In this document: positions 222 through 50,795 of the stretch, one piece after another
Layout: each line of letters opens with the position of its first letter
How positions within the stretch are numbered: position 1 is the stretch's first letter
Source of the DNA: Patescibacteria group bacterium
GTDB lineage: Bacteria; Patescibacteriota; Patescibacteriia; UBA2591; UBA4787
NCBI GenBank assembly: GCA_028715115.1
Contig: JAQUSN010000001.1
Span: 3,314-67,313, forward strand
Direction: 5' to 3'
DNA length: 64,000 nt
Position numbers and translations under genes: made by a program
Notes under the pieces: model-generated
Seen by the model: only the letters and a program-made list of their open reading frames with translations
Database searches by the model: none
Told to the model about the DNA's origin: nothing

Positions 222-2642
222 TTAAAAATTTCTTAATTTAGCATTAAATTTATCAAATAATAATTTTACCAAATCATTAATAACCTTATCTATTTCCTGT
301 GAATTTAATGTTCTTTCAAATGATTGAAAAGTTAAATGAAAGGCGACATTAAGCACGTCAGCGCCTAATTTGTCTGACTCAAAAACATCAAATGCTTCTA
401 CTCCAGAAATTAAGGGATGAAAGTCCTTGATTGTTTTTAATAAGTCAGCTAAAACCGTCGACCTAGCCACAATAAAAGACAAATCTCTTAAAATCGGAGG
501 GTAATTGGAAATAGTTTTAAACATTGGCGTGGGCCTTTCGATTACCTTGAGGTTTTCTATATTAATTTCAAATAAACCAGCGCCGGAATTTATCTTTAAT
601 GAGTTTTTTAGAGCATCATCTAATTCTCCTGTGACGCCAATCAATTTTTTATCAACAAAAATGCCGATTATATTTTTAAGATATTGATACTGATGATTCT
701 TGCCAACTTGAAAAGAGATTCGTTCCGTACCAAAACCGGCTTTCGACAAAACCGTTTCGATTATTGATTTAATCGAATAAAATAATTTTTTATTCTTTTC
801 GATGATAATGCCCGAGCAATATTTTTCTTCTTTTACCAGCATTTCCTGATCCGGTTGATAGATTTTACCAACCTCAAAAATCCTAAACTGACCAAAAATT
901 GGAATATTCTTTAGGGCATTCTCCAATAAATAAGGAATTAAACTTATTCTTAAATATTTCAATTGCGGACTTAAGGGGTTGGCTAGGGACAAATGATCCT
1001 CGATCTTCAGCTTTAGCTGATTAATTAATCTATCTCCGTAAAATGAATAATTATAAGTCTCATCAAAACCACTGGCAACTAGGGTTAATTTAATATTTTG
1101 CTCAAGTTTAAAATCGTCATTATAAGAAACCGGCGTAATTTGACCCGTTAGCGGTTGCGGCATCAAATCGTCTAAACCATAAATACGCACAATATCTTCT
1201 ATTAGGTCTTCCGGCTGCTCCACGTCAGGCCTATACAAAGGAACGCTTACTGATATTTTTTTCTGGCTTATTTTTTTCACCCCAAAACCCAATGACTTTA
1301 AAATGCTTATTATTTTAGTTAAATTAATCGGAGCGCCAACTAAATCATGGACTCTTTTTACGTCTAAGGCGATGATTTTTTTGTTTTTTATTAAATTACT
1401 AATCTTAACACTCCGTAAATCATAAATCTGGCTGACTATCTTCCCGCCGGCTAATTCTTCTATTAATTCAACGGCTCTGGCGAGTCCTTGCTCGGAAAAA
1501 GTTACAGGTAAACCTTTTTCAAAACGCAAAACCGCCTCGGTTCGCAAGCCGGTTCGCCAAGAAGTACGACGAATAGCGGCTGGTTCAAAAAGCGCCGATT
1601 CGATTATGACAGTCTTGGTCTTGCTATCAATAGCTGAGTACTGGCCGCCGATAATGCCGGCCAAGGCTATTGGACCGCGGTTATCAGCAATAACCAAGTC
1701 GCCTTCCTGGCATTCGTAGGTTTTGGCATCAAGCGCTAAAATACGTTCGCTTTTTTTAGCCAAACGAACAAAAATATTTTTATTTTTTTCTGACGATACC
1801 TTGTCTAGCTTATCAAAATCAAAAGCATGAAGCGGCTGACCTCTTTCTAGTAAAACATAATTAGTAATGTCTACGACATTATTGATCGGTTTAATGCCCA
1901 AATTTCTCAATCTATTTTGAAGCCAAAGCGGCGAAGGGCCAATCTTAATAGAATCCATAATCACCGCCATATAGCGTGGACAGAGTTTATCGTTGCTAAT
2001 TTTAATGTTAACTTTTAGTAAACCGCTTTTTGTTTTTGGTAGTTTAAGCGGTATTTCTTTTATTTGCTGTCCTTTGATGGCTGCGATTTCTTTGGCAAAA
2101 CCTTCAACCGAGAATAAGTCAGGCCGATGAGTTAATGATTTATTTTCCACGTCTAAAATAGTATCGTCAAGCTCTAAAAGTTTAGTAATTGGTTCGCCGA
2201 CCCTTGATTTTTCGGGCAAAACTAAAATGCCGGTATGATCATCGCCCAAACATAATTCATCTTCGGCGCAAAGCATACCGATCGATTTTACACCCCTAAT
2301 AACAGCCTCTTTTATCTCCGCACCATTAGGCAATCGCGCACCGGGCAAGGCTAACGGAACTATCTGACCGGACTTGATATTAGGCGCGCCGCAAACAATT
2401 TCTAAGCGCTGATCTTGCCTGGTTTTTTTGTCGGGGAAAATAATGGTCGCGATTTTTAATTTATCTGCGTTAGGGTGCGGCTTAACTTCAACAATTTTGA
2501 CGGCAATAATCCGATCTAAATTTTTATTCAAAGATACCGTGCCCTCAACCTGCGCTACGCGCGTAGTCAAAAGTTTAGCCAAATTTTCTGGCGATTCGTT
2601 GAATTTTACTAACTTCTTGAGCCACTGATAAGATAATTTCAT
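222..2642 (-). CDS. pheT: phenylalanine--tRNA ligase beta subunit
   Basis: 806-aa product beginning MKLSYQWLKKLV (internal Met of the 826-aa ORF). PheT-like throughout, with B3/4 and FDX-ACB-like regions. Confidence 0.9.
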   Translation of the reverse strand: MKLSYQWLKKLVKFNESPENLAKLLTTRVAQVEGTVSLNKNLDRIIAVKIVEVKPHPNADKLKIATIIFPDKKTRQDQRLEIVCGAPNIKSGQIVPLALPGARLPNGAEIKEAVIRGVKSIGMLCAEDELCLGDDHTGILVLPEKSRVGEPITKLLELDDTILDVENKSLTHRPDLFSVEGFAKEIAAIKGQQIKEIPLKLPKTKSGLLKVNIKISNDKLCPRYMAVIMDSIKIGPSPLWLQNRLRNLGIKPINNVVDITNYVLLERGQPLHAFDFDKLDKVSSEKNKNIFVRLAKKSERILALDAKTYECQEGDLVIADNRGPIALAGIIGGQYSAIDSKTKTVIIESALFEPAAIRRTSWRTGLRTEAVLRFEKGLPVTFSEQGLARAVELIEELAGGKIVSQIYDLRSVKISNLIKNKKIIALDVKRVHDLVGAPINLTKIISILKSLGFGVKKISQKKISVSVPLYRPDVEQPEDLIEDIVRIYGLDDLMPQPLTGQITPVSYNDDFKLEQNIKLTLVASGFDETYNYSFYGDRLINQLKLKIEDHLSLANPLSPQLKYLRISLIPYLLENALKNIPIFGQFRIFEVGKIYQPDQEMLVKEEKYCSGIIIEKNKKLFYSIKSIIETVLSKAGFGTERISFQVGKNHQYQYLKNIIGIFVDKKLIGVTGELDDALKNSLKINSGAGLFEINIENLKVIERPTPMFKTISNYPPILRDLSFIVARSTVLADLLKTIKDFHPLISGVEAFDVFESDKLGADVLNVAFHLTFQSFERTLNSQEIDKVINDLVKLLFDKFNAKLRNF

Positions 2643-6929: not shown

Positions 6930-9900
6930 CTATATTTTACGGTACTCACAAATATCCTTAAAATCGCAATACTTGCAAAGCATACTCGGCTTGGCCGGAA
7001 AATTACTGTGATGAATTTCGTCAAAAATTTTGGCGATTTTTTGTTTCATATCATCCAGCTCGCCCTCCGTCCCTAAAAAAGACAACTGGGAATTATCTTC
7101 TAAAAAAATATAAGTTAATTTTTTAATTTCTTTTTTGAACAAACCGGCCGCGGCTAATTGATAAATCAGTAATTGCTCTTTATCTTCGGCTGATAATTTT
7201 CCGTCTTTAACGGTACCGGTTTTATAATCAATAATTTCTAAACCGTCTCCCAAATCGTCTACCCGGTCAATTTTTCCCTTAATCGTGCAGTCGCCGACCT
7301 TAAAATTAAAATCTAACTCCACATATTGAACGTCTGGTTTCGAGGTGCTGAATTCCTGATAAAATTTCTTTAAACTCTTCTCTCCCTTTTGCCGATATTC
7401 TTCCCGCAACTTATCGTCCGGATACCATTCATCAATCCAGCACTCATCATAAATCTTCATTATCAAATCCTGGTTTGGCACGACAGGCTCTTCCTTTTTC
7501 GGCGTTTCAAATAATTTGCTTTGTACGACTTTCTTCTGCAATAAAACTTGCGACAAAAACTTTTGGAGCGTTAGATGCATAGTCTGGCCAAAACTAAATA
7601 CATAACGGCCGCGAACTGGAATACGCAAAATAAAACCGAATTTATATTGCAACGGGCAATTTTCAAAAGCGCGCAGTTGGCTAAAACTAATTTTGGCCGG
7701 CAAATTAAATTGAGTGATTACTTTTTTTTCTTCCTCTTTAAAAATCGGCAATTTTAAGACTTTTGTTTTTTTACCTATAGCCTCTTCTTTTATTAAACCT
7801 AATTCATATAAAAATCTTGAGGCCTTTTTCTTGCGGGCGCCACCGTAATCATCGGCTAAAGTTAAAAATAAATTATCTTTGGCGCGAGTTAGTGCCACGT
7901 AAAATAATCGCCGTTCTTCTTGTAAATGAATATCGCCTTCGGGAATTATCTCGCGAGTCAAGGCATCGGGCAATTCAACGCCTTCTTTGCGCTCTGAAGT
8001 AGGAAAACGGCGATCAACTAAATTAACTAAAAAAACCGTTTTAAATTCCAGGCCTTTAGCGCCATGAACGGTCATAATTTTTACCGTCTCCGGACCAACT
8101 TCAATAATATCAGTCGGCAACGAGCCCTCATCGCCAGCTTCAATAATAATATCGATCGTCTCAATAAAATTCTTTAATGATTTATCGGTATTGGTTAATT
8201 CGAATTCTTCTATTTTTTTGAAAAATTGGCTAACCCAGGCAACATTCTCTATATTTTCTAGGCCGCCTTTTTCAGCCTGCCGGGAAATACTTTTCAAATA
8301 ACCAGAATCTTCCAAGAAAGAATAAACTATTTTACCCGCGCCCTGCTGTCTGGCCATCTGGCTATGTTTTTCAATCCAGCCCAAAAGCTGATCAATGGCC
8401 GACGCGCCATCTTTGGAAATTTCTTGCAAAGAATGAATTGTTTTTAGTGTTTGATAAAGAGATTTTCCTTTGCGGCGCGCCGCATTTATTATGTTGACTA
8501 AGTCTTCGTTAGTTATTTTTCCGCCCGAGGCGTGAACCCTAGGCTCATCAGCCTTGGGCTGAGATCGGCCTGCCTGTCCGCTAGGCAGGCCCTGGGCCGA
8601 AAAAATCGGCGACGTTAAAATCCGATAAAGCGCTGTGCTTTCGTGATAATTAACTAATAATTTTAAATAGGCCAAAATGTCTAAAATAATCGGCTTAGAA
8701 AATAATCCGCTGTGGGCTAAAAATTGATAAGGCACATTGCGCCAACGCAAAGCCTGGCAAAATATTTCCGCCTGATTATTAGCCCGCACTAAAATGGCAA
8801 AATCGTTCCAACTGGCTTCCGGGTTTTTTTCTTTCATCTCGATAATTTTATCGACTACGGCTTTGGCCTCTTCGTCTTGAGTGGCACTTTGCAGTAAATC
8901 AATGTTTGCGCCATTACCGCGCGTAGCTTCAAGTTTTTTGCAAATTACGTTTTTGGGCAAATCGCCCACTCCGTCAAGCTGAGAAACCTGCGCCTCCAGA
9001 CGATTGGGATTATTAAGCTGAATAAAACGATAGGCCATATCTAATATCTCTTGTCTGGAACGATAATTTTTCACCAAAACAACTTCTTTGGTTTTGGGGT
9101 AATCTCTTTTAAACTGAATAACATTGTTATATGAAGCGCCACGGAATTTATAAATACTCTGGTCATCATCGGCCACTACGGTTAAATTATTCTTTGGAGC
9201 GCCTAATAATTTTAATAATTCATATTGCGACCAATTAGTATCTTGAAATTCATCAACCAAAACATATTTAAACTGTTCCCTGTATTTAGCTAAAACGTTT
9301 GGCCGATCTTTGAAAAGCTTGATCGTATAATTAATCAAATCACCAAAATCAAGCGCCGAATTTTCTAATAATAGTTGCTGGTAAGTTTGATAAGCCTCGG
9401 CGATTTCTTTGAGCCGGCCGGCTTCCTGATCTAAAAGTTTATGGCTGGTTACCGTATCCTGATCTAGGGCAATTTTCTCCGCGTAATTTAAATATTCTTC
9501 GGGTGTAATAAATTCGTCTTTAGCCCGAGAAAAATGCTTGATCAAATCTTGAATGAATTTAAACGGCGTACCGAGCGGCCGATAATAGTTTAGATTAAAA
9601 CGGCTAAAATTCTGGCGGACCAAAAGAGCCTGTTGGGCAGAATTAATGATTTTAAAATTAAGCGGGAGTCCAATTTCAATGGCGTGCTGGCGTAAAATTC
9701 TTTCGCAAAAAGAATGAAAAGTCGAAGCCCAAAGGTCAACATAACCATAAGGTAATAATTTATCAATGCGCTCTTCCATTTCTTCGGCCGCCTTATCAGT
9801 AAAAGTCAAAGCTAAAATTTCTTCGGGTTTGGCCTTTCCGGACAAAATCAGCCAGGCGATGCGCCGGGTAATAACCGTGGTTTTGCCCGTACCCGCTCCG

Positions 9901-9992
9901 GCGATAATTAAAAATGGACCGTCGCCGTGAATGACCGCCTGTTGTTGCTCTTGGTTTAAATCGCTGGTTATTTCTTCTAAAATCATAAGCAT
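6930..9992 (-). CDS. UvrD/PcrA-family ATP-dependent DNA helicase fused to a C-terminal RecB/Cas4-like PD-(D/E)XK nuclease with a Cys cluster
   Basis: Walker A GAGTGKT. UvrD motifs (LVDEFQDTN, VGDDDQSIY-like, TVHGAKGLEF). C-terminal nuclease motifs (DRVDDLGDGLEIIDYKTG) and CKYCDFKDIC. Confidence 0.85.
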   Translation of the reverse strand: MLMILEEITSDLNQEQQQAVIHGDGPFLIIAGAGTGKTTVITRRIAWLILSGKAKPEEILALTFTDKAAEEMEERIDKLLPYGYVDLWASTFHSFCERILRQHAIEIGLPLNFKIINSAQQALLVRQNFSRFNLNYYRPLGTPFKFIQDLIKHFSRAKDEFITPEEYLNYAEKIALDQDTVTSHKLLDQEAGRLKEIAEAYQTYQQLLLENSALDFGDLINYTIKLFKDRPNVLAKYREQFKYVLVDEFQDTNWSQYELLKLLGAPKNNLTVVADDDQSIYKFRGASYNNVIQFKRDYPKTKEVVLVKNYRSRQEILDMAYRFIQLNNPNRLEAQVSQLDGVGDLPKNVICKKLEATRGNGANIDLLQSATQDEEAKAVVDKIIEMKEKNPEASWNDFAILVRANNQAEIFCQALRWRNVPYQFLAHSGLFSKPIILDILAYLKLLVNYHESTALYRILTSPIFSAQGLPSGQAGRSQPKADEPRVHASGGKITNEDLVNIINAARRKGKSLYQTLKTIHSLQEISKDGASAIDQLLGWIEKHSQMARQQGAGKIVYSFLEDSGYLKSISRQAEKGGLENIENVAWVSQFFKKIEEFELTNTDKSLKNFIETIDIIIEAGDEGSLPTDIIEVGPETVKIMTVHGAKGLEFKTVFLVNLVDRRFPTSERKEGVELPDALTREIIPEGDIHLQEERRLFYVALTRAKDNLFLTLADDYGGARKKKASRFLYELGLIKEEAIGKKTKVLKLPIFKEEEKKVITQFNLPAKISFSQLRAFENCPLQYKFGFILRIPVRGRYVFSFGQTMHLTLQKFLSQVLLQKKVVQSKLFETPKKEEPVVPNQDLIMKIYDECWIDEWYPDDKLREEYRQKGEKSLKKFYQEFSTSKPDVQYVELDFNFKVGDCTIKGKIDRVDDLGDGLEIIDYKTGTVKDGKLSAEDKEQLLIYQLAAAGLFKKEIKKLTYIFLEDNSQLSFLGTEGELDDMKQKIAKIFDEIHHSNFPAKPSMLCKYCDFKDICEYRKI
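8577..8601. repeat. GC-rich inverted repeat GGCCTGCC-N9-GGCAGGCC inside the helicase ORF, within a roughly 100-nt GC-rich in-frame insertion
   Basis: Encodes the low-complexity insert SGQAGRSQPKADEPRVHASGG. Sharp local GC rise at 8520-8625. Confidence 0.5.
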
Positions 9993-10024
9993 ATTCTAGC
10001 AAATTTAATTTAAAAAGCCAACCC

Positions 10025-10053
10025 TTGACAAAAGAGAGAAAATATGATAACAT
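10025..10053 (+). promoter_or_regulatory. sigma70-like promoter TTGACA-17-TAACAT of GC-rich cassette 1
   Basis: TTGACA at 10025-10030, TAACAT at 10048-10053. AAGGAGG at 10086-10092 precedes the GTG start. Confidence 0.4.
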
Positions 10054-10098
10054 ATGGGTACTTAGCACAAAGGGCACTAATGCCCAAGGAGGTTCTAC

Positions 10099-10797
10099 GT
10101 GAAAGTTCGCAATCTCTGGCACCTGACATGGATCGTGCCTGTGACCGTAACGGCTGTGATTGGGCTCGGGACAGCAATCAAGCCCATCACCCACGGCATC
10201 AAGCAGGCGTACGCCAAAATGGGCCGAGTGGCCGGCGATTTCGCCGACAACACAGCCTGTGCAGCTATAAACCAGCTCAATGACGACACGCTCGACGCGA
10301 AGCGGCTGTCCAGGCGGCAACTACTCGACTCCCTCTACTACCTAAGAATGCGGGTCCAGGAACAGGAGTATGAGCTGACAGACCTGTACAACCAGCTCAA
10401 CACCAACCTGTACTACCAGACCGGCATCTTCCGGGTCGAGGCGGCGGAAATACAAAACGTCCAAATCAACGGCCTCTACGAAGAAGCCGATGGCCTGATC
10501 AACAGACTGATCCATACCTGTTACCTCGGTCGAAACGTCATGTCCGACTACCTGACAGCACCCAAGGGCGCCCAGGCAGACACCAAAGTCATGCTTGAGC
10601 ATGCGTTTTACCAGGTCATTCGACCTGCGTCGCGACGCATCATCCAGTACCTGCAGATCAAGCACTACAGGGACGGATGGACCAACAACCTGGGAATCGG
10701 ATGGCCGGAACTGAACGGGGAAGATCTGCGATGCCTTAACTGGGCAGTCGCGGTCAACCTAGACCAGCCAACAACCTGGCTCTACAGCGAACCGTAA
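10099..10797 (+). CDS. hypothetical secreted/membrane-anchored protein encoded in a high-GC island (GTG start)
   Basis: 232 aa. Strong GC3 codon bias (about 55-58% GC against a 38% background). AAGGAGG RBS 6 nt upstream. N-terminal hydrophobic segment. Confidence 0.6.
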   Translation: MKVRNLWHLTWIVPVTVTAVIGLGTAIKPITHGIKQAYAKMGRVAGDFADNTACAAINQLNDDTLDAKRLSRRQLLDSLYYLRMRVQEQEYELTDLYNQLNTNLYYQTGIFRVEAAEIQNVQINGLYEEADGLINRLIHTCYLGRNVMSDYLTAPKGAQADTKVMLEHAFYQVIRPASRRIIQYLQIKHYRDGWTNNLGIGWPELNGEDLRCLNWAVAVNLDQPTTWLYSEP

Positions 10798-10808
10798 CCG
10801 TTCCGAAA

Positions 10809-10850
10809 AAGGCCGGGCCCCGCAAGGAGCCCGGCCTTGACTTTTATCTA
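10809..10850 (+). terminator. intrinsic terminator with a GNRA-capped GC stem (AAGGCCGGGCCCCGCAAGGAGCCCGGCCTT) and a T tract
   Basis: 10-bp GC stem followed by GACTTTTATC. Overlaps the -35 box of the next promoter. Confidence 0.6.
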
Positions 10851-10864
10851 AAATATGCTATTAT
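10837..10864 (+). promoter_or_regulatory. sigma70-like promoter TTGACT-16-TATTAT, near-identical to the promoter at 32551
   Basis: ttgacttttatctaaaatatgctattat versus ttgacttttaaccaaaatatgctataat at 32551-32578. Confidence 0.45.
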
Positions 10865-10941
10865 ATAAAAGCAATCGTAGAAATACGAAGGCAAGAACGT
10901 CGCTGGACACAAGTCTAGCGGCACAAACTAAGGAGACAAGA

Positions 10942-11397
10942 ATGAAGACGCTTATTCCCTTAACGATAGTTATCCTGCTGCTCGGCTTCGGGGGCTGCAC
11001 CAAAACTGGCGCAATTCCCGAGGACAATCTGGTAGCAACCAGCATAACGGCCCCGCACGATTCCCTGGATGAACTCTCAACATCAGCGAAACAGCTGATA
11101 CGGGACGTCAAGGACGCCATAACAGACAATGACAACCCGCGCGACTTCTGGTTCTGGACGATCGGCAGGTCGTTGGCCAAGATGGCTGTGGCACTGCAAC
11201 GTGCCCCGACCGAACGACAGACGTTCTATCTGCCTATCCTGAAGAAGGAACTCGAAGTCTACAACCAGAAGTTCTGCCCTTGTGCCCGTTCCTACCGAGA
11301 AGACCAGGCAGTCCTGACCTGGGTAAAGCAATTCCAGGCGGAAGACTCGACTACCTGGACACCACCCGAAGTGCTCCTGCGCGGAGCACTCGAATAA
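10942..11397 (+). CDS. hypothetical lipoprotein (high-GC island)
   Basis: 151 aa. MKTLIPLTIVILLLGFGGC is a lipobox-like signal. AAGGAG RBS at 10930-10935. A 5' UTR hairpin CGCTGGAC-ACAA-GTCTAGCG precedes it. Confidence 0.6.
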   Translation: MKTLIPLTIVILLLGFGGCTKTGAIPEDNLVATSITAPHDSLDELSTSAKQLIRDVKDAITDNDNPRDFWFWTIGRSLAKMAVALQRAPTERQTFYLPILKKELEVYNQKFCPCARSYREDQAVLTWVKQFQAEDSTTWTPPEVLLRGALE

Positions 11398-11410
11398 CCT
11401 CCGCTGGAAC

Positions 11411-11450
11411 CAAAACCGGCCGCCTTCGGGCAGCCGGTTTTCCTTTTGCG
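11411..11450 (+). terminator. intrinsic terminator AAAACCGGCCGCC-TTCG-GGCAGCCGGTTTT plus CCTTTTG
   Basis: GC stem with a UUCG-type loop and flanking A/T tracts. Confidence 0.6.
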
Positions 11451-11460
11451 CAACAATCTA

Positions 11461-12330
11461 TTAAATACCAAATAATTTTTCGCTGTTTTCCATCGTCGCC
11501 TGTTCTACTTCTTCAAAAGAAGTATTTTTTATTTGCGCGATTTTTTCGATAATATATCTGACATGCCAAGGTTCACAACGCTGGCGCCGCACTGGCTGTG
11601 GCGATAAATACGGACAATCGGTTTCAACCAAAATTCTATCCAAGGGTGTTTTTGCCACCACCTCAAGTAAATTGTTCATAGCGACCCTCCTTCGTTCGTC
11701 TGACGAACGACGGGTTCTCGATTTTTCATCTTTGCTTTCAGCAAAGGAAAAATCGGAAGGATATGTAATGATTCCGGTAAAACCAAGATAAAATCCGCAG
11801 CTTAAAAATTTATGCGCGGTTTGCCAATCAGCTGAAAAGCAGTGCAATTCGCCTCGCGGCGCATAACCAAAATTATCTATTATTAACAATAGATCTTCAT
11901 AAGCCTGAAGCGGTCTATCTTTACCGCCCCGACAATGTAAAATAACCGGTAAATCAACCTCTTTGGCTAACTCTAAATGTCTTAAAAAAACTTCTTTCTG
12001 CCTATCATAATTCATAATTCCTGATTCATTATTCTGATGTTGATCCAAGCCTGTTTCGCCAATGGCTTTAATAAAATCATAATTATTTTTTACCAATTGG
12101 CAATATTGTTTTAAATCAAAACTCTCGTCTTTGACATGAATCGGATGAAGGCCAACGGCTGCAAAAACTCCGTCAAATTGCCGAGCAATCTGAATGGCCT
12201 TTTGACTAGTTAAGAAATTTGAACCGATATTAATAATTTTAGCCACGCCTTTGGCTTGGCTATTTTTTATTACCTCGGCATAATCGTCTTTGAACGCCTG
12301 AAAATTTAGATGGCTATGAACGTCGAACAT
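11461..12330 (-). CDS. TatD-family metal-dependent hydrolase (DNase) with an internal roughly 33-aa insertion
   Basis: MFDVHSHLNF, GLHP and ETD motifs. Insert TYPSDFSFAESKDEKSRTRRSSDERRRVAMNNL is encoded by DNA containing the hairpins CGTTCGTCTGACGAACG and TTTGCTTTCAGCAAA. Confidence 0.8.
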   Translation of the reverse strand: MFDVHSHLNFQAFKDDYAEVIKNSQAKGVAKIINIGSNFLTSQKAIQIARQFDGVFAAVGLHPIHVKDESFDLKQYCQLVKNNYDFIKAIGETGLDQHQNNESGIMNYDRQKEVFLRHLELAKEVDLPVILHCRGGKDRPLQAYEDLLLIIDNFGYAPRGELHCFSADWQTAHKFLSCGFYLGFTGIITYPSDFSFAESKDEKSRTRRSSDERRRVAMNNLLEVVAKTPLDRILVETDCPYLSPQPVRRQRCEPWHVRYIIEKIAQIKNTSFEEVEQATMENSEKLFGI

Positions 12331-16677: not shown

Positions 16678-16914
16678 ATGACTAGAGAGCAAAGTGATTG
16701 GCTCGTAATAGGAATAGGGTTTGTACTTACCTACACGCTCTCCCTGTTCTTGCCCTACACGCCATTCTTCGTCCACGCCATCAAGATGTTCATCGTCAAC
16801 TTACTGTGGTGGGGAGTCGTCATGGGGCTGGCCGCTTCAGAAGGTCGACGCTTCGACGAAGAAACGAAGCAACGAGCCATACGACTGAGCATAACAAACG
16901 CCGGTCGCGCCTAA
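16678..16914 (+). CDS. small two-TM membrane protein (78 aa) encoded by high-GC DNA
   Basis: MTREQSDWLVIGIGFVLTYTLSLFLPYTPFFVHAIKMFIVNLLWWGVVMGLAAS... GC3-rich codons. The ORF track starts earlier at a TTG. Confidence 0.55.
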   Translation: MTREQSDWLVIGIGFVLTYTLSLFLPYTPFFVHAIKMFIVNLLWWGVVMGLAASEGRRFDEETKQRAIRLSITNAGRA

Positions 16915-32603: not shown

Positions 32604-32966
32604 ATGCTGATTGTGATTGTGATCTGGGCCGTCCTGATGCTGGCCTATCCCGTCCTTCCCGTTGTTCTTTCGGGAATCTTACCGCCCCTGGTCTTTCTGA
32701 TCCTGTCCCTGATCTCAAACGAGGACTCTGTGTTCTCGACTCTGTGGACGGTCTTCATCATCTGCGGTATAGTCGGCGCCATCCTGAGCATCTTCTTCGT
32801 CCCGCAAGAGATCTTTTCGGCCAAAGACCCTGTGGTGCTGTATTTCCGGTTCACGAGGATGTGTGGCCTAATCGCCGCCTACGCAGTCACGATTGTCGTG
32901 GCTATTGTGAAAGTCATCAACTTAATCGAGACAAGGGCAAGAGCAAGGGCCGCAACAACCGTCTGA
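32604..32966 (+). CDS. small polytopic membrane protein (120 aa) encoded by high-GC DNA
   Basis: MLIVIVIWAVLMLAYPVLPVVLSGILPPLVFLILSLI... GC3-rich. About 4 TM helices. Confidence 0.55.
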   Translation: MLIVIVIWAVLMLAYPVLPVVLSGILPPLVFLILSLISNEDSVFSTLWTVFIICGIVGAILSIFFVPQEIFSAKDPVVLYFRFTRMCGLIAAYAVTIVVAIVKVINLIETRARARAATTV

Positions 32967-32974
32967 TCAGCAAC

Positions 32975-33012
32975 TGGGGCGCTCGCACATCGCGGGCGCC
33001 TCTGACCGTTTT
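32975..33012 (+). terminator. GC-rich hairpin (GGGCGCTCGCACATCGCGGGCGCC) plus T tract
   Basis: Follows the stop of the 32604 ORF. Followed by TCTGACCGTTTTAG. Confidence 0.45.
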
Positions 33013-35332: not shown

Positions 35333-35347
35333 GCCTGCCATCGCCCT

Positions 35348-35420
35348 AGCCCGCGGTCGGAATCGAACCGACAACCTACGGTTTACGATACCGTTGCTCT
35401 ACCAGTTGAGCTACACGGGC
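35348..35420 (-). tRNA. tRNA-Thr (anticodon CGU)
   Basis: rc = GCCCGTGTAGCTCAACTGGTAGAGCAACGGTATCGTAAACCGTAGGTTGTCGGTTCGATTCCGACCGCGGGCT. 7-bp acceptor, loop ATCGTAA. Flanked by GGCGATGGCAGGCGGGG (35329-35346) and CCTGCCCGCCATAG (35426-35439). Confidence 0.85.
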
Positions 35421-35444
35421 TCAGGCTATGGCGGGCAGGTCTAC

Positions 35445-35528
35445 CCTACTTCGAGCTTATTAATTAAGCTCGAACGGGCCGTCCAGTTTTTTTCAAAAAC
35501 TGGAATAGGCCAATTGAGCTATCTGGGC
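35445..35528. repeat. conserved double-hairpin repeat (TTCGAGCTTA-N-TAAGCTCGAA, CGGGCCGT, CCAGTTTTT-N3-AAAAACTGG, AATAGG) fused to a 19-nt tRNA 5' fragment (GCCCAGATAGCTCAATTGG on the minus strand)
   Basis: About 80% identical to 41280-41358. The hairpin core is also at 40671-40690. Confidence 0.7.
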
Positions 35529-40544: not shown

Positions 40545-40617
40545 AGCCGAGGGTCGGAATCGAACCGACAACCTATGGTTTACAAAACCATTGCTCTGCC
40601 TATTGAGCTACCTCGGC
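40545..40617 (-). tRNA. tRNA-Thr (anticodon UGU)
   Basis: rc = GCCGAGGTAGCTCAATAGGCAGAGCAATGGTTTTGTAAACCATAGGTTGTCGGTTCGATTCCGACCCTCGGCT. Confidence 0.85.
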
Positions 40618-40639
40618 ATAGTCAGCTCAGACTAAGGCG

Positions 40640-40760
40640 GACGGGCAGAGCCACTACCGCCCAGTTTTAAGAAAAACTGGAATAGGCTGTTGTCCCGACG
40701 TTTCAGTAGAAAAGTCGGGTCTCCGACCGAAAGCGTCGGAGAGCTAGGGCGGCATGCTCG
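40640..40760. repeat. copy B of the tRNA-associated repeat: hairpin CCAGTTTTAAGAAAAACTGG, hairpin-rich CCCGACG/GTCGGAG segment, and a tRNA-like 5' fragment GCCGCCCTAGCTC
   Basis: Homologous to 35483-35637 (shared CCCGACGTTT, GTCGGAGAGCTA, GGCAT). Degenerate CCTGCCCG-CCGCC motif directly upstream of the tRNA. Confidence 0.55.
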
Positions 40761-40832
40761 CGGTTACAAATCGCGTAACTATTTTTTTCTAGCCAATTTT
40801 CTTGTTTCCTGAATTATACCCATATAAATTCT

Positions 40833-40918
40833 GGTGGGCGGGGCAGGATTTGCACCTGCGAAGGCCGGAGGCCAACAGATTTACAGTCTGCTGCATTTGA
40901 CTACTTTGCTACCCGCCC
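40833..40918 (-). tRNA. tRNA-Tyr (anticodon GUA), class II with a long variable arm, CCA encoded
   Basis: rc = GGGCGGGTAGCAAAGTAGTCAAATGCAGCAGACTGTAAATCTGTTGGCCTCCGGCCTTCGCAGGTGCAAATCCTGCCCCGCCCACCA. Confidence 0.8.
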
Positions 40919-40931
40919 CAATTAACATCTA

Positions 40932-41004
40932 AGCCCGAGGTCGGATTTGAACCGACGACCTACTCCTTACCATGGAGTTGCTCTACCAGCTGAGCTACCC
41001 GGGC
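40932..41004 (-). tRNA. tRNA-Thr (anticodon GGU)
   Basis: rc = GCCCGGGTAGCTCAGCTGGTAGAGCAACTCCATGGTAAGGAGTAGGTCGTCGGTTCAAATCCGACCTCGGGCT. Confidence 0.85.
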
Positions 41005-41256
41005 ATGTTGTAAATATTGTTTTAAAATTTTCTGCTTTAATTTGGCGCTATATAAACTTTTAAAGTATTTTTCTTGTTCCATCGCTTCAACTCGTGTATC
41101 AAATGATTCTTGATGAATAACAATAAACGGCCTTCTATTTTTTGTCGATATTACCTGCCCACTATTATGTTTTTTAACTCTCGCCACTAGGTCATCAGTT
41201 TGCCCAACATATAATTTTTTATCTTTCAGGCTATATAAGATATAAACAAAATACAT
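40960..41256 (-). CDS. GIY-YIG domain endonuclease (small, URI-type). The 3' end of the ORF runs into the tRNA-Thr(GGU) gene.
   Basis: FVYILYSLKDKKLYVGQTDDLVARVKKHN...E matches GIY / YIG / R / H-N / E spacing. The last roughly 15 codons are tRNA sequence. Confidence 0.65.
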   Translation of the reverse strand: MYFVYILYSLKDKKLYVGQTDDLVARVKKHNSGQVISTKNRRPFIVIHQESFDTRVEAMEQEKYFKSLYSAKLKQKILKQYLQHARVAQLVEQLHGKE

Positions 41257-41279
41257 ATTTTGCTACTTGCTTTACCCTA

Positions 41280-41358
41280 ATTCGAGCTTATTAGATAAGC
41301 TCGAACGGGCCGTCCAGTTTTAAGAAAAACTGGAATAGGCCAGCTGAGCTACCCGGGC
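41280..41358. repeat. copy C of the tRNA-associated repeat plus an exact 19-nt duplicate of the tRNA-Thr(GGU) 5' end (GCCCGGGTAGCTCAGCTGG, with 2 nt of upstream flank)
   Basis: ttcgagcttattagataagctcgaacgggccgtccagttttaagaaaaactggaataggccagctgagctacccgggc. Confidence 0.7.
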
Positions 41359-50594: not shown

Positions 50595-50765
50595 GTGAGC
50601 GATTTCTTGAAGATATTGATCGGCTTAGTAATGCTGATCGGAGGCGGACTACTGAGCTATACGGCGTTCTGCCCCATCGTCCTGTGCATTGCCGGAGCAG
50701 GCGCCATCATAGCGCTTTGGTCCGCTTATGTCATGGCTTGCCGGTCTTGTCACATAGCAGGCTGA
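50595..50765 (+). CDS. small (56 aa) Cys-containing hydrophobic protein, GTG start, high GC. Absent from the ORF track.
   Basis: VSDFLKILIGLVMLIGGGLLSYTAFCPIVLCIAGAGAIIALWSAYVMACRSCHIAG. GC3-rich. Perfect SD spacing. Confidence 0.5.
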   Translation: MSDFLKILIGLVMLIGGGLLSYTAFCPIVLCIAGAGAIIALWSAYVMACRSCHIAG

Positions 50766-50795
50766 CTTCGGTCAGCCTGCTTCTGCTTTTATTTA
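50756..50795 (+). terminator. intrinsic terminator GCAGGCTGAC-TTCG-GTCAGCCTGC plus TTCTGCTTTTATTT
   Basis: 10-bp perfect stem with a UUCG loop that overlaps the stop codon. Confidence 0.65.

Follow-up and report, generated by a model that had tools for sequence, protein, structure and literature searches.

GC-rich, putatively insulated gene cassettes for candidate envelope proteins in a Patescibacteria genome: an apparently recurrent accessory class

We analysed a 64-kb stretch of a Patescibacteria group bacterium (contig JAQUSN010000001.1 of assembly GCA_028715115.1, positions 3,314 to 67,313 of the forward strand; hereafter the window) and focus on a segment at 10022–11450 of it, which is rich in guanine plus cytosine (GC) and carries two open reading frames (ORFs), ORF1 and ORF2, between a helicase gene and a TatD gene. 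The reading we prefer, with somewhat better than even confidence, is that the segment consists of two adjacent but independent cassettes of a recurrent accessory class for envelope ORFans, which circulates within Patescibacteria as promoter-to-terminator units. The class is defined by its design: the promoter is of sigma-70 type, close to the consensus, and has a TRTG extended -10 element; then come a short leader, a strong Shine-Dalgarno (SD) sequence and a GC-rich ORF; and the terminator is a long GC hairpin closed by a tetraloop.

The segment has a GC content of ~0.56 against a background of ~0.39. In windows of 200 nucleotides (nt), GC rises from 0.385–0.465 (9900–10199) to 0.55–0.58 (10100–10799 and 11000–11399) and is back down to 0.445 at 11400–11599, which places the steps up and down between about 10050 and 11450. 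The bin 10001–11000 is the maximum of the 1-kb GC profile (0.527), and 10151–11550 is the top tetranucleotide outlier of the whole window (z = 6.7). Codon statistics were collected for all ORFs of at least 150 amino acids (aa). GC at codon positions 1/2/3 is 0.59/0.37/0.73 for ORF1 and 0.57/0.43/0.66 for ORF2, whereas GC at third positions (GC3) lies at 0.28–0.46 in all 45 other such ORFs of the window; ribosomal-protein genes conform to the host usage, and CTG and CTC make up 82% of the leucine codons in the segment versus 12% in host genes. An initial annotation, made from the letters alone, had reported a jump from about 38% to about 56% GC at 10040–11450 and GC3-biased codons on the plus strand, and had proposed a tetranucleotide check; our figures bear it out on all these points.

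Both flanking genes lie on the minus strand, as that annotation had it: a UvrD/PD-(D/E)XK helicase-nuclease gene on the left and TatD on the right (Table 1). The segment, 1.43 kb long, fills the gap between them almost entirely. A promoter-like site of the helicase gene marks the left edge of host DNA, and only 3 nt separate it from the -35 box of the first cassette; at the other end, the last terminator stops ~10 nt from the TatD stop codon. Both junctions and the exact proteins recur in four assemblies, namely two NCBI metagenome-assembled genomes (MAGs), both labelled 'Patescibacteria group bacterium', and two Logan assemblies from separate runs. The DNA of the four matches the window at 99.99% identity or more, and they therefore represent one population, yet were assembled independently. 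Given the same junctions in four assemblies, a misjoin (a chimera of the kind that the initial annotation had wanted excluded) is very unlikely as the source of the segment. At the borders of the segment we found no direct or terminal inverted repeats, target-site duplications or att-like repeats; integrase, transposase and phage genes were found neither within 10 kb of it nor among the annotated genes of the window, and the segment has no match in Rfam. The closest tRNA gene is 24 kb off.

With TatD as an anchor across the GTDB species genomes, the two closest genomes (L008 and L009) provide empty sites: directly after TatD (48–49% identity), across a spacer of about 30–110 nt and with no island, comes the helicase ortholog (56–58%) on the same strand. 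It follows that the junction of TatD and helicase is the ancestral state, into which the 1.43-kb segment was inserted in the opposite orientation. The left junction could not be placed to the base, the alignment of the region upstream of the helicase gene with the empty sites being uninformative owing to divergence. Of the earlier proposal of a horizontally acquired, exogenous module, one part holds, since the empty junctions in two genomes reveal a real insertion, which is compositionally foreign and made up of two independent units; the outside donor is not supported, for reasons given below.

Each of the two units has a complete set of predicted expression signals (Table 1), and the two promoters are the top two sites in a scan for promoters. 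The signals listed in the initial annotation (promoters, SD sequences 6–7 nt before the starts, one GTG start, terminators with a GNRA or UUCG loop, and a second promoter overlapping the T tract of the first terminator) are all present. The distance from SD to start codon is 6 nt for both ORFs, and the -35 box of promoter 2 overlaps the 3' arm of terminator 1 as well as its T tract. In both cassettes a hairpin adjoins the SD sequence in the leader. That of cassette 1 is seen in the centroid fold and alone is without significance (z = -0.45). The 5' untranslated region (UTR) of cassette 2 folds at -21.2 kcal/mol (z = -5.1). Terminator 1 (-25.7 kcal/mol, z = -3.9) is matched in stability by none of 200 shuffled sequences. 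Terminator 2 (-24.0 kcal/mol) is preceded by an A tract and followed by a T tract; it could be bidirectional, thus also ending the convergent TatD transcript.

That the two units are independent is seen from the relatives of ORF2. There are only two, P0003 (44% identity) and P0004 (40%, reached via profile iteration); metagenome contigs of the Joint Genome Institute (JGI) contain no further relative beyond the one already known. Both are hosted by another AT-rich, Patescibacteria-like lineage, here called lineage B, of which there are at least 13 contigs in many samples of JGI and the European Nucleotide Archive. Lineage B probably also belongs to Patescibacteria, because one of these contigs encodes a serine recombinase whose cluster, at 90% identity, has members named from several Patescibacteria classes. 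In lineage B the lipoprotein gene always lies between dnaK and a DUF8128 gene, as an island of GC 0.55–0.60 in a background of 0.30–0.45. There the ORF2 homolog occurs without ORF1, as a complete unit of promoter, UTR, coding sequence (CDS) and terminator. The DNA homology between the window and lineage B exceeds the CDS, and includes the promoter (GGGGTTGAC..AAAATRTGCTATnATATA), a leader of ~75 nt and the terminator (AAACCGGCCGC..CGGTTTTyCTTTT). The 10-bp hairpin of the cassette 2 leader, next to the SD sequence on its 5' side, is found in two lineage-B contigs (L005 and L013) as well, with a compensatory change of G:C to A:U (GUCGCU/AGCGAC versus GUCACU/AGUGAC). The segment had been described as a single 'two-gene island', a description that we abandon: ORF2 occurs alone in lineage B, and at least three further units of the window have the same design.

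The GC-richness of the ORF2 family appears to be old. Between the window and lineage-B genes the proportion of synonymous differences (pS) is 0.68–0.77, i.e. saturated, and the ratio of nonsynonymous to synonymous divergence (dN/dS) is about 0.3 or lower, from which it follows that ORF2 is a real protein under purifying selection. GC3 is 0.64–0.69 in all three genes of the family, and GC is 0.37–0.40 in promoter plus leader. Because synonymous sites are saturated and GC3 has been retained, we regard GC-richness as a lasting property of the cassette rather than as the fresh signature of a donor; the sharp boundary between AT-rich and GC-rich DNA, co-inherited over a long divergence, is not what a recent import that has not yet ameliorated would predict. 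An exogenous donor, as proposed in the initial annotation, is therefore not supported: relatives of ORF2 are found only in AT-rich Patescibacteria-like genomes, the promoter is of native type, and GC3 has persisted at saturation. A search for a high-GC donor among ~15 billion proteins and in phage, plasmid and IMG/VR collections found none. The GC-richness might be due to selection favouring an mRNA that is stable or translated slowly, to GC-biased conversion at a locus prone to recombination, or to an unsampled GC-rich pool that contains whole cassettes. Two further candidates were rejected. Codon optimisation for high expression does not agree with the ribosomal-protein genes S4 and S9, RpoA and the lineage-B DnaK gene, all of which keep the AT bias of the host, and a requirement of membrane targeting for GC-rich codons does not agree with host membrane-protein genes, which keep the host bias as well.

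The lipoprotein gene of lineage B exists as two alleles in flanks that are 93–100% identical, and one sample contains both. Between the alleles, the N-terminal half of the mature protein has been replaced together with the upstream spacer: synonymous divergence (dS) is 1.9 for the N-terminal half, 0.34 for the C-terminal half and 0.21 for the neighbouring gene. We take this mosaicism as recombinational exchange with a divergent pool of alleles, as is typical for exposed surface proteins. An indel of ~300 nt also distinguishes two versions of the spacer that separates dnaK from the lipoprotein cassette (L005 250–550 versus L013 8990–9100). The L005 version includes a perfect inverted repeat of 18 nt (ATACCCTGTTTTTCACGG/CCGTGAAAAACAGGGTAT) and, past a TTGACA box, a GC-rich part; it may be another small element or RNA.

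ORF2 fits the rule for lipoprotein signals and lipoboxes (MKTLIPLTIVILLLGFGGC), which agrees with its initial description as a 151-aa lipoprotein. The (PROSITE-like) rule also holds for P0003 and P0004, and the Cys is invariant in the family alignment. The three members share an F-x-G-C lipobox, a core (WF.T.GRSLA..AVALQ.AP) and a nearly invariant C-terminus (Y.EDQAVL.W.KQ...D.TTW.PP.VLLRGALE). An AlphaFold2 (AF2) model of mature ORF2, based on the three-sequence alignment, predicts a flexible or disordered tether of ~20 residues followed by a compact bundle of 4–5 helices, with a predicted local distance difference test score (pLDDT) of about 90 for residues 41–145. Sequence searches of PDB gave no match. 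We saw neither lgt nor lspA among the annotated genes of the window, which covers 64 kb of a 479-kb contig and was not given a dedicated test for these genes.

ORF1 had been described as a secreted protein of 232 aa. It has this length, and its N-terminus contains one hydrophobic segment (Kyte–Doolittle hydropathy over 19 residues, KD19 = 1.86), a candidate signal anchor or signal peptide; its predicted secondary structure is all-helical. ORF1 itself was the only sequence returned when 5.8e9 proteins were searched by word index and 1.84e9 representatives exhaustively with phmmer, and a sequence search of PDB yielded nothing; judged by these searches, ORF1 is a strict ORFan. Its AF2 model, made from the single sequence, is not usable (pLDDT 43). 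A weak likeness of 24 residues between the C-termini of ORF1 and ORF2 (E about 0.06–0.09) is not significant, and we do not accept the two as paralogs. Neither ORF has a significant family match in Pfam, PHROGs, NCBIfam or PADLOC, or a match in IMG/VR, INPHARED phages or PLSDB plasmids, consistent with the initial annotation, which recognised no motif in them; the scans of family libraries also took in the ORF2 homologs and gave no significant match for these either.

Three more units of the same design (C3, C4 and C5) were found from the remaining GC peaks and GC3-rich small ORFs of the window, all of them on the plus strand between minus-strand genes (Table 1). The hairpins of C5 (GCCGGTCGCGC-CTAA-GCGCGACCGGC) and C4 (with a UUCG loop) span the stop codon, and C3 ends in an 11-bp GC hairpin. 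Lineage B also has a second GC-rich cassette, with a promoter nearly that of the lipoprotein cassette, an AGGAGG SD sequence and a UUCG-loop terminator; its product is an unrelated, secreted, beta-rich ORFan of 195 aa with a cleavable signal peptide (..VQA/YT). The motif TTGAC-N8-11-AAATRTGNTA has three matches in the window, all of them in cassettes (0.00 expected), and is present in every lineage-B cassette. Cassette terminators account for four of the six strongest plus-strand sites in the window that combine a GC hairpin with a T tail. An inverted codon bias is common to all eight cassette CDSs: CTG plus CTC make up 38–83% of their leucine codons (11% in the host), and the ratio of NNC to NNT is about 1.3–6.5:1 (pooled ~2.8:1) versus 1:3 in the host. 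Signal peptides or transmembrane (TM) segments are found in eight out of eight products, and no CDS could be assigned to a Pfam family. We thus count at least five cassettes in the window, with others in lineage B, and regard them as a recurrent and apparently undescribed class; a literature search found no description of such cassettes. As a kind they are known, since moron-like or islet-like accessory genes are such; what is apparently unreported is the recurrence, the common promoter, the lasting inverted composition and the restriction to Patescibacteria.

The cassette-type promoter is also found in front of a stretch without an ORF. On the minus strand of L008, such a promoter (TTGACT..AAATATGCTATATT) leads into an ORF-free stretch of ~170 nt that ends in a terminator hairpin, a putative small RNA upstream of genes for cytidine deaminase and TatD (Rfam gives no family for it, the best being BTnc231 with 29 bits against a cut-off of 80 bits). 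Its presence there argues that the promoter is native to these bacteria and not imported.

Table 1. Predicted cassette features, flanking genes and other elements (window positions unless a contig is named; SD, Shine-Dalgarno sequence)
Feature	Position	Strand	Description
Helicase-nuclease gene (UvrD/PD-(D/E)XK)	6930–9992	-	left flank
Helicase promoter-like site	9993–10021	-	TTGGCT-17-TAGAAT with TG; left edge of host DNA
Cassette 1 promoter	10025–10053	+	TTGACA-17-TAACAT, TRTG-type extended -10 (AAAATATGATAACATAT); 10/12 with TG
Cassette 1 5'UTR hairpin and SD	10072–10092	+	GGGCA-CUAA-UGCCC (centroid fold), then SD AAGGAGG (10086–10092)
ORF1	10099–10797	+	232 aa, GTG start
Terminator 1	10809–10848	+	arms 10809–10821/10826–10838, 13 nt (12 paired), GCAA loop, interrupted T tract
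Cassette 2 promoter	10837–10864	+	TTGACT-16-TATTAT, extended -10; 10/12 with TG; homologous to promoters of lineage-B lipoprotein cassettes
Cassette 2 5'UTR	10875–10935	+	5'-proximal hairpin 10875–10888; 10-bp hairpin 10899–10922; SD AAGGAG 10930–10935
ORF2	10942–11397	+	151-aa lipoprotein precursor, ATG start, lipobox LGFGG followed by C19
Terminator 2	11412–11450	+	arms 11412–11424/11429–11441, 13 nt (12 paired), UUCG (TTCG) loop; homologous to lineage-B terminator
TatD gene	11461–12330	-	right flank
C5	16621–16936	+	TTGACA-16-TATAAT (12/12), SD GGAGG, ATG at 16678, 78-aa membrane ORFan, GC3 0.62
C3	32551–33002	+	promoter GGGGTTGACT..AAAATATGCTATAAT, SD AAGGAGG, ORF 32604–32966 (120 aa, 3–4 TM segments, GC3 0.71), hairpin 32976–33002
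C4	50538–50790	+	TTGACA-17-TATAGT with TG, SD AAGGAGG, GTG at 50595, 56-aa membrane peptide, GC3 0.63, hairpin 50757–50780
Second lineage-B cassette	L017 ~1340–2085		between epimerase gene and hrcA; same gene in L013 4612–5199
Putative small RNA	L008 2311–2110	-	cassette-type promoter, terminator hairpin
Large serine recombinase gene	L017 14953–16560	-	lineage B
Insert in helicase gene	8520–8594		25 codons, in frame
Insert in TatD gene	11683–11754		24 codons, in frame

A few other observations were made along the way. Of the 44 ORFs of at least 150 aa that we take as host genes, the minus strand carries 37, and the whole window has a negative GC skew, so that the five plus-strand cassettes would be head-on to the inferred direction of replication; the cassettes of lineage B, however, are co-oriented with their neighbours, and the plus-strand placement in the window may be coincidence. 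Both flanking genes have an in-frame insert that their orthologs in L008 and L009 lack (Table 1). The two inserts are palindromic DNA (the one in the helicase gene has a GC of 0.68) and recall the Rickettsia palindromic elements within protein genes; the epimerase and HrcA proteins of lineage B have similar odd GC-rich stretches, and no repeat family was detected within the window. Two regions with tRNA-Thr(CGU) and tRNA-Thr(UGU) share a duplication (35347–35521 and 40545–41351; 60 nt, 88% identity), and an 80-nt repeat lies beside the tRNA clusters (41273–41351 versus 35442–35521, 89% identity). The cluster of the large serine recombinase of lineage B has 444 members, with sources that include Harrisonbacteria, Shapirobacteria, Pacebacteria and other Patescibacteria, which points to a mobile element shared very recently and widely across classes of the phylum.

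The preferred reading suggests the following course of events. Each unit would be transcribed strongly and apart from the surrounding operons, and its mRNA would be shielded by hairpins at both ends. ORF1 would be inserted into the membrane or exported via its N-terminal hydrophobic segment; ORF2, once exported, would receive its lipid at Cys19 and present a small helical bundle at the cell surface, attached by a flexible tether. The cassettes would pass whole between Patescibacteria lineages and alleles by recombination, without an integrase of their own, perhaps following uptake of DNA. Their products would be strain-variable envelope proteins, acting most plausibly at the interface with host cells or phages, and their GC-richness may be kept by selection on the mRNA or by biased recombination.

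Several other explanations were considered. That the segment is a two-gene island from a single recent transfer out of an unsampled, high-GC donor outside Patescibacteria (e.g. the host of the episymbiont), and has not yet ameliorated, we think unlikely. The sharp composition step, the inverted codon usage, the relatives with an empty site and the ORFan status of ORF1 would all agree with such a transfer, but in protein, phage, plasmid and IMG/VR collections the homologs are confined to AT-rich Patescibacteria-like contigs, ORF2 is found alone in lineage B, an AT-rich, native-type promoter and UTR have been inherited together with the GC-rich CDS over saturating divergence, and five cassettes at four intergenic sites within 64 kb would require repeated imports. 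We are about equally doubtful that these are native genes, inherited vertically, with GC-rich codons that selection alone preserves (favouring, for example, a very stable mRNA, or slow translation as a help to membrane insertion) and with the 'insertion' being a loss in the relatives. The ORF2 family is extremely rare, sits at different chromosomal sites in two lineages and is absent from both relatives with TatD–helicase synteny, and the mosaic replacement of alleles is seen directly. In its favour are the GC3 retained at saturated dS beside an AT-rich promoter, signals that are all tuned for strong expression and products that are all envelope-targeted; however, host genes for ribosomal proteins, DnaK and membrane proteins lack the bias, so neither expression nor targeting demands it.

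An origin as prophage morons or as parts of another mobile element (genes for lysogenic conversion or superinfection exclusion), left behind as the element decayed, is less probable again. The predicted architecture does fit the definition of a moron (extra DNA of different GC with its own promoter and terminator), and a small membrane protein and a lipoprotein resemble exclusion proteins. Against this stand the lack of phage, integrase and transposase genes within 10 kb or in the annotated window, the lack of matches in PHROGs, INPHARED phages, IMG/VR and BFVD, the lack of att-like repeats, and the position of the cassettes, which sit singly among housekeeping genes at four sites. An artefact (a chimeric assembly, a contaminant fragment, or GC-rich structured RNA misread as ORFs) is hardly credible. 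It would account for the abrupt change of composition, and RNA genes often form GC-rich islands in AT-rich genomes, but the junctions are identical in four assemblies, which go back to at least three read sets or MAGs, and the AT-rich promoters within the segment resemble those of these genomes. A structured RNA was rejected in view of the missing Rfam match, the strong three-base periodicity, and the purifying selection on the ORF2 protein relative to its homologs (dN/dS about 0.3 or lower).

A number of points nevertheless weigh against the preferred reading of circulating cassettes. Even the closest genomes with empty sites are distant (~50–58% protein identity), and the taxonomy of lineage B is inferred indirectly. 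The argument from persistence draws on a small sample (three members of the ORF2 family in two lineages), and does not hold should an unsampled pool have lately supplied both lineages with complete cassettes together with their AT-rich promoters. The likeness of the promoters may be due to convergence on the consensus instead of common descent; the promoter of the putative small RNA of L008 is of the same type. Promoters and terminators of the cassettes are predictions from sequence, and the membership of the three extra units of the window was judged by their design only. The stop-free run of ORF1 (238 codons) is only moderately unusual at its composition (5 out of 1000 shuffles reach it), so that its coding status rests on length, codon periodicity and SD sequence and not on conservation. 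Fold searches with ORF2 match generic helical bundles only (the top Foldseek hit, Borrelia DbpA, has E = 1.5 and a TM-score (template modelling score) of 0.33 and is not significant), and a role of ORF2 in surface interaction is an inference.

Patescibacteria, also known as the candidate phyla radiation (CPR), are a large and mostly uncultured share of bacterial diversity. They spend their lives attached to the cells of others, and the make-up and variation of their surface repertoire are largely unexplained. Here a broader proposal, tentative and in our estimate clearly less probable than the preferred reading itself, is that the cassettes belong to a genome-wide, unrecognised class in Patescibacteria: 'compositionally inverted', insulated units, each with a common strong promoter, a GC-rich ORFan for an envelope protein and a tetraloop terminator, and with a GC-richness that is actively maintained against AT bias (through selection acting on the stability or the translation kinetics of the mRNA, or through biased gene conversion at loci prone to recombination), which are mobile without mobility genes and form a fast-evolving surface repertoire for episymbiosis. 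The signature of strong TRTG promoter, GC3-rich ORF and tetraloop terminator would offer a means of listing candidate proteins of the host or phage interface from MAGs. A gene that stays GC-rich over saturating divergence in an AT-rich genome, next to its own AT-rich promoter, is also a puzzle in itself, and its solution matters for models of amelioration, for GC-biased conversion in bacteria and for the habit of reading composition as a sign of recent horizontal gene transfer (HGT). If the cassettes are merely an ordinary case of HGT of ORFans, their value is confined to the annotation of these genomes.

The cassettes can be compared with several known systems. Integron cassettes are promoterless ORFs with an attC site, arrayed beside intI, whereas here each unit has its own predicted promoter, no integrase is found in the window, and each hairpin is a simple GC stem closed by a tetraloop and followed by a T tail (no formal attC model was run). 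With classical genomic islands and islets acquired by HGT they share the outlying composition, the ORFan content and the absence from the syntenic site in relatives; they differ in that the units are just 0.3–0.8 kb with each gene apparently insulated by itself, that they have no integrase, tRNA target or flanking repeats, and that their detectable relatives are all of the same phylum and have the same regulatory ends. ORF2 resembles the Borrelia surface lipoproteins DbpA, OspC and Vsp in its lipobox, its flexible tether and compact helical bundle, and in having its allelic mosaicism mostly in a single region of the protein, but there is no sequence similarity and the DbpA hit is not significant, which makes this an analogy only. 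So-called mobile promoters are said to propagate upstream of unrelated genes, as Matus-Garcia et al. reportedly described in 2012. Here, too, a near-identical promoter (GGGGTTGAC...AAAATRTGCTAT) precedes non-homologous genes in one genome; unlike mobile promoters, however, it is always accompanied by a GC-rich CDS and a tetraloop terminator, and the likeness may reflect convergence on the consensus.

Phage morons are defined as extra DNA with a different GC content and its own promoter and factor-independent terminator (PMC3594210; the concept of Hendrix and Juhala). The cassettes are likewise extra DNA at a syntenic site when compared with relatives, with a GC unlike that of their neighbours and with one gene between its own (here predicted) promoter and terminator; and the product of a moron is often a membrane or surface protein of benefit to the carrier. 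In contrast to morons, the cassettes lie outside phages and prophages, between chromosomal housekeeping genes at several sites; their unrelated genes have a promoter type and a codon bias in common, and their GC-richness outlasts saturating divergence.

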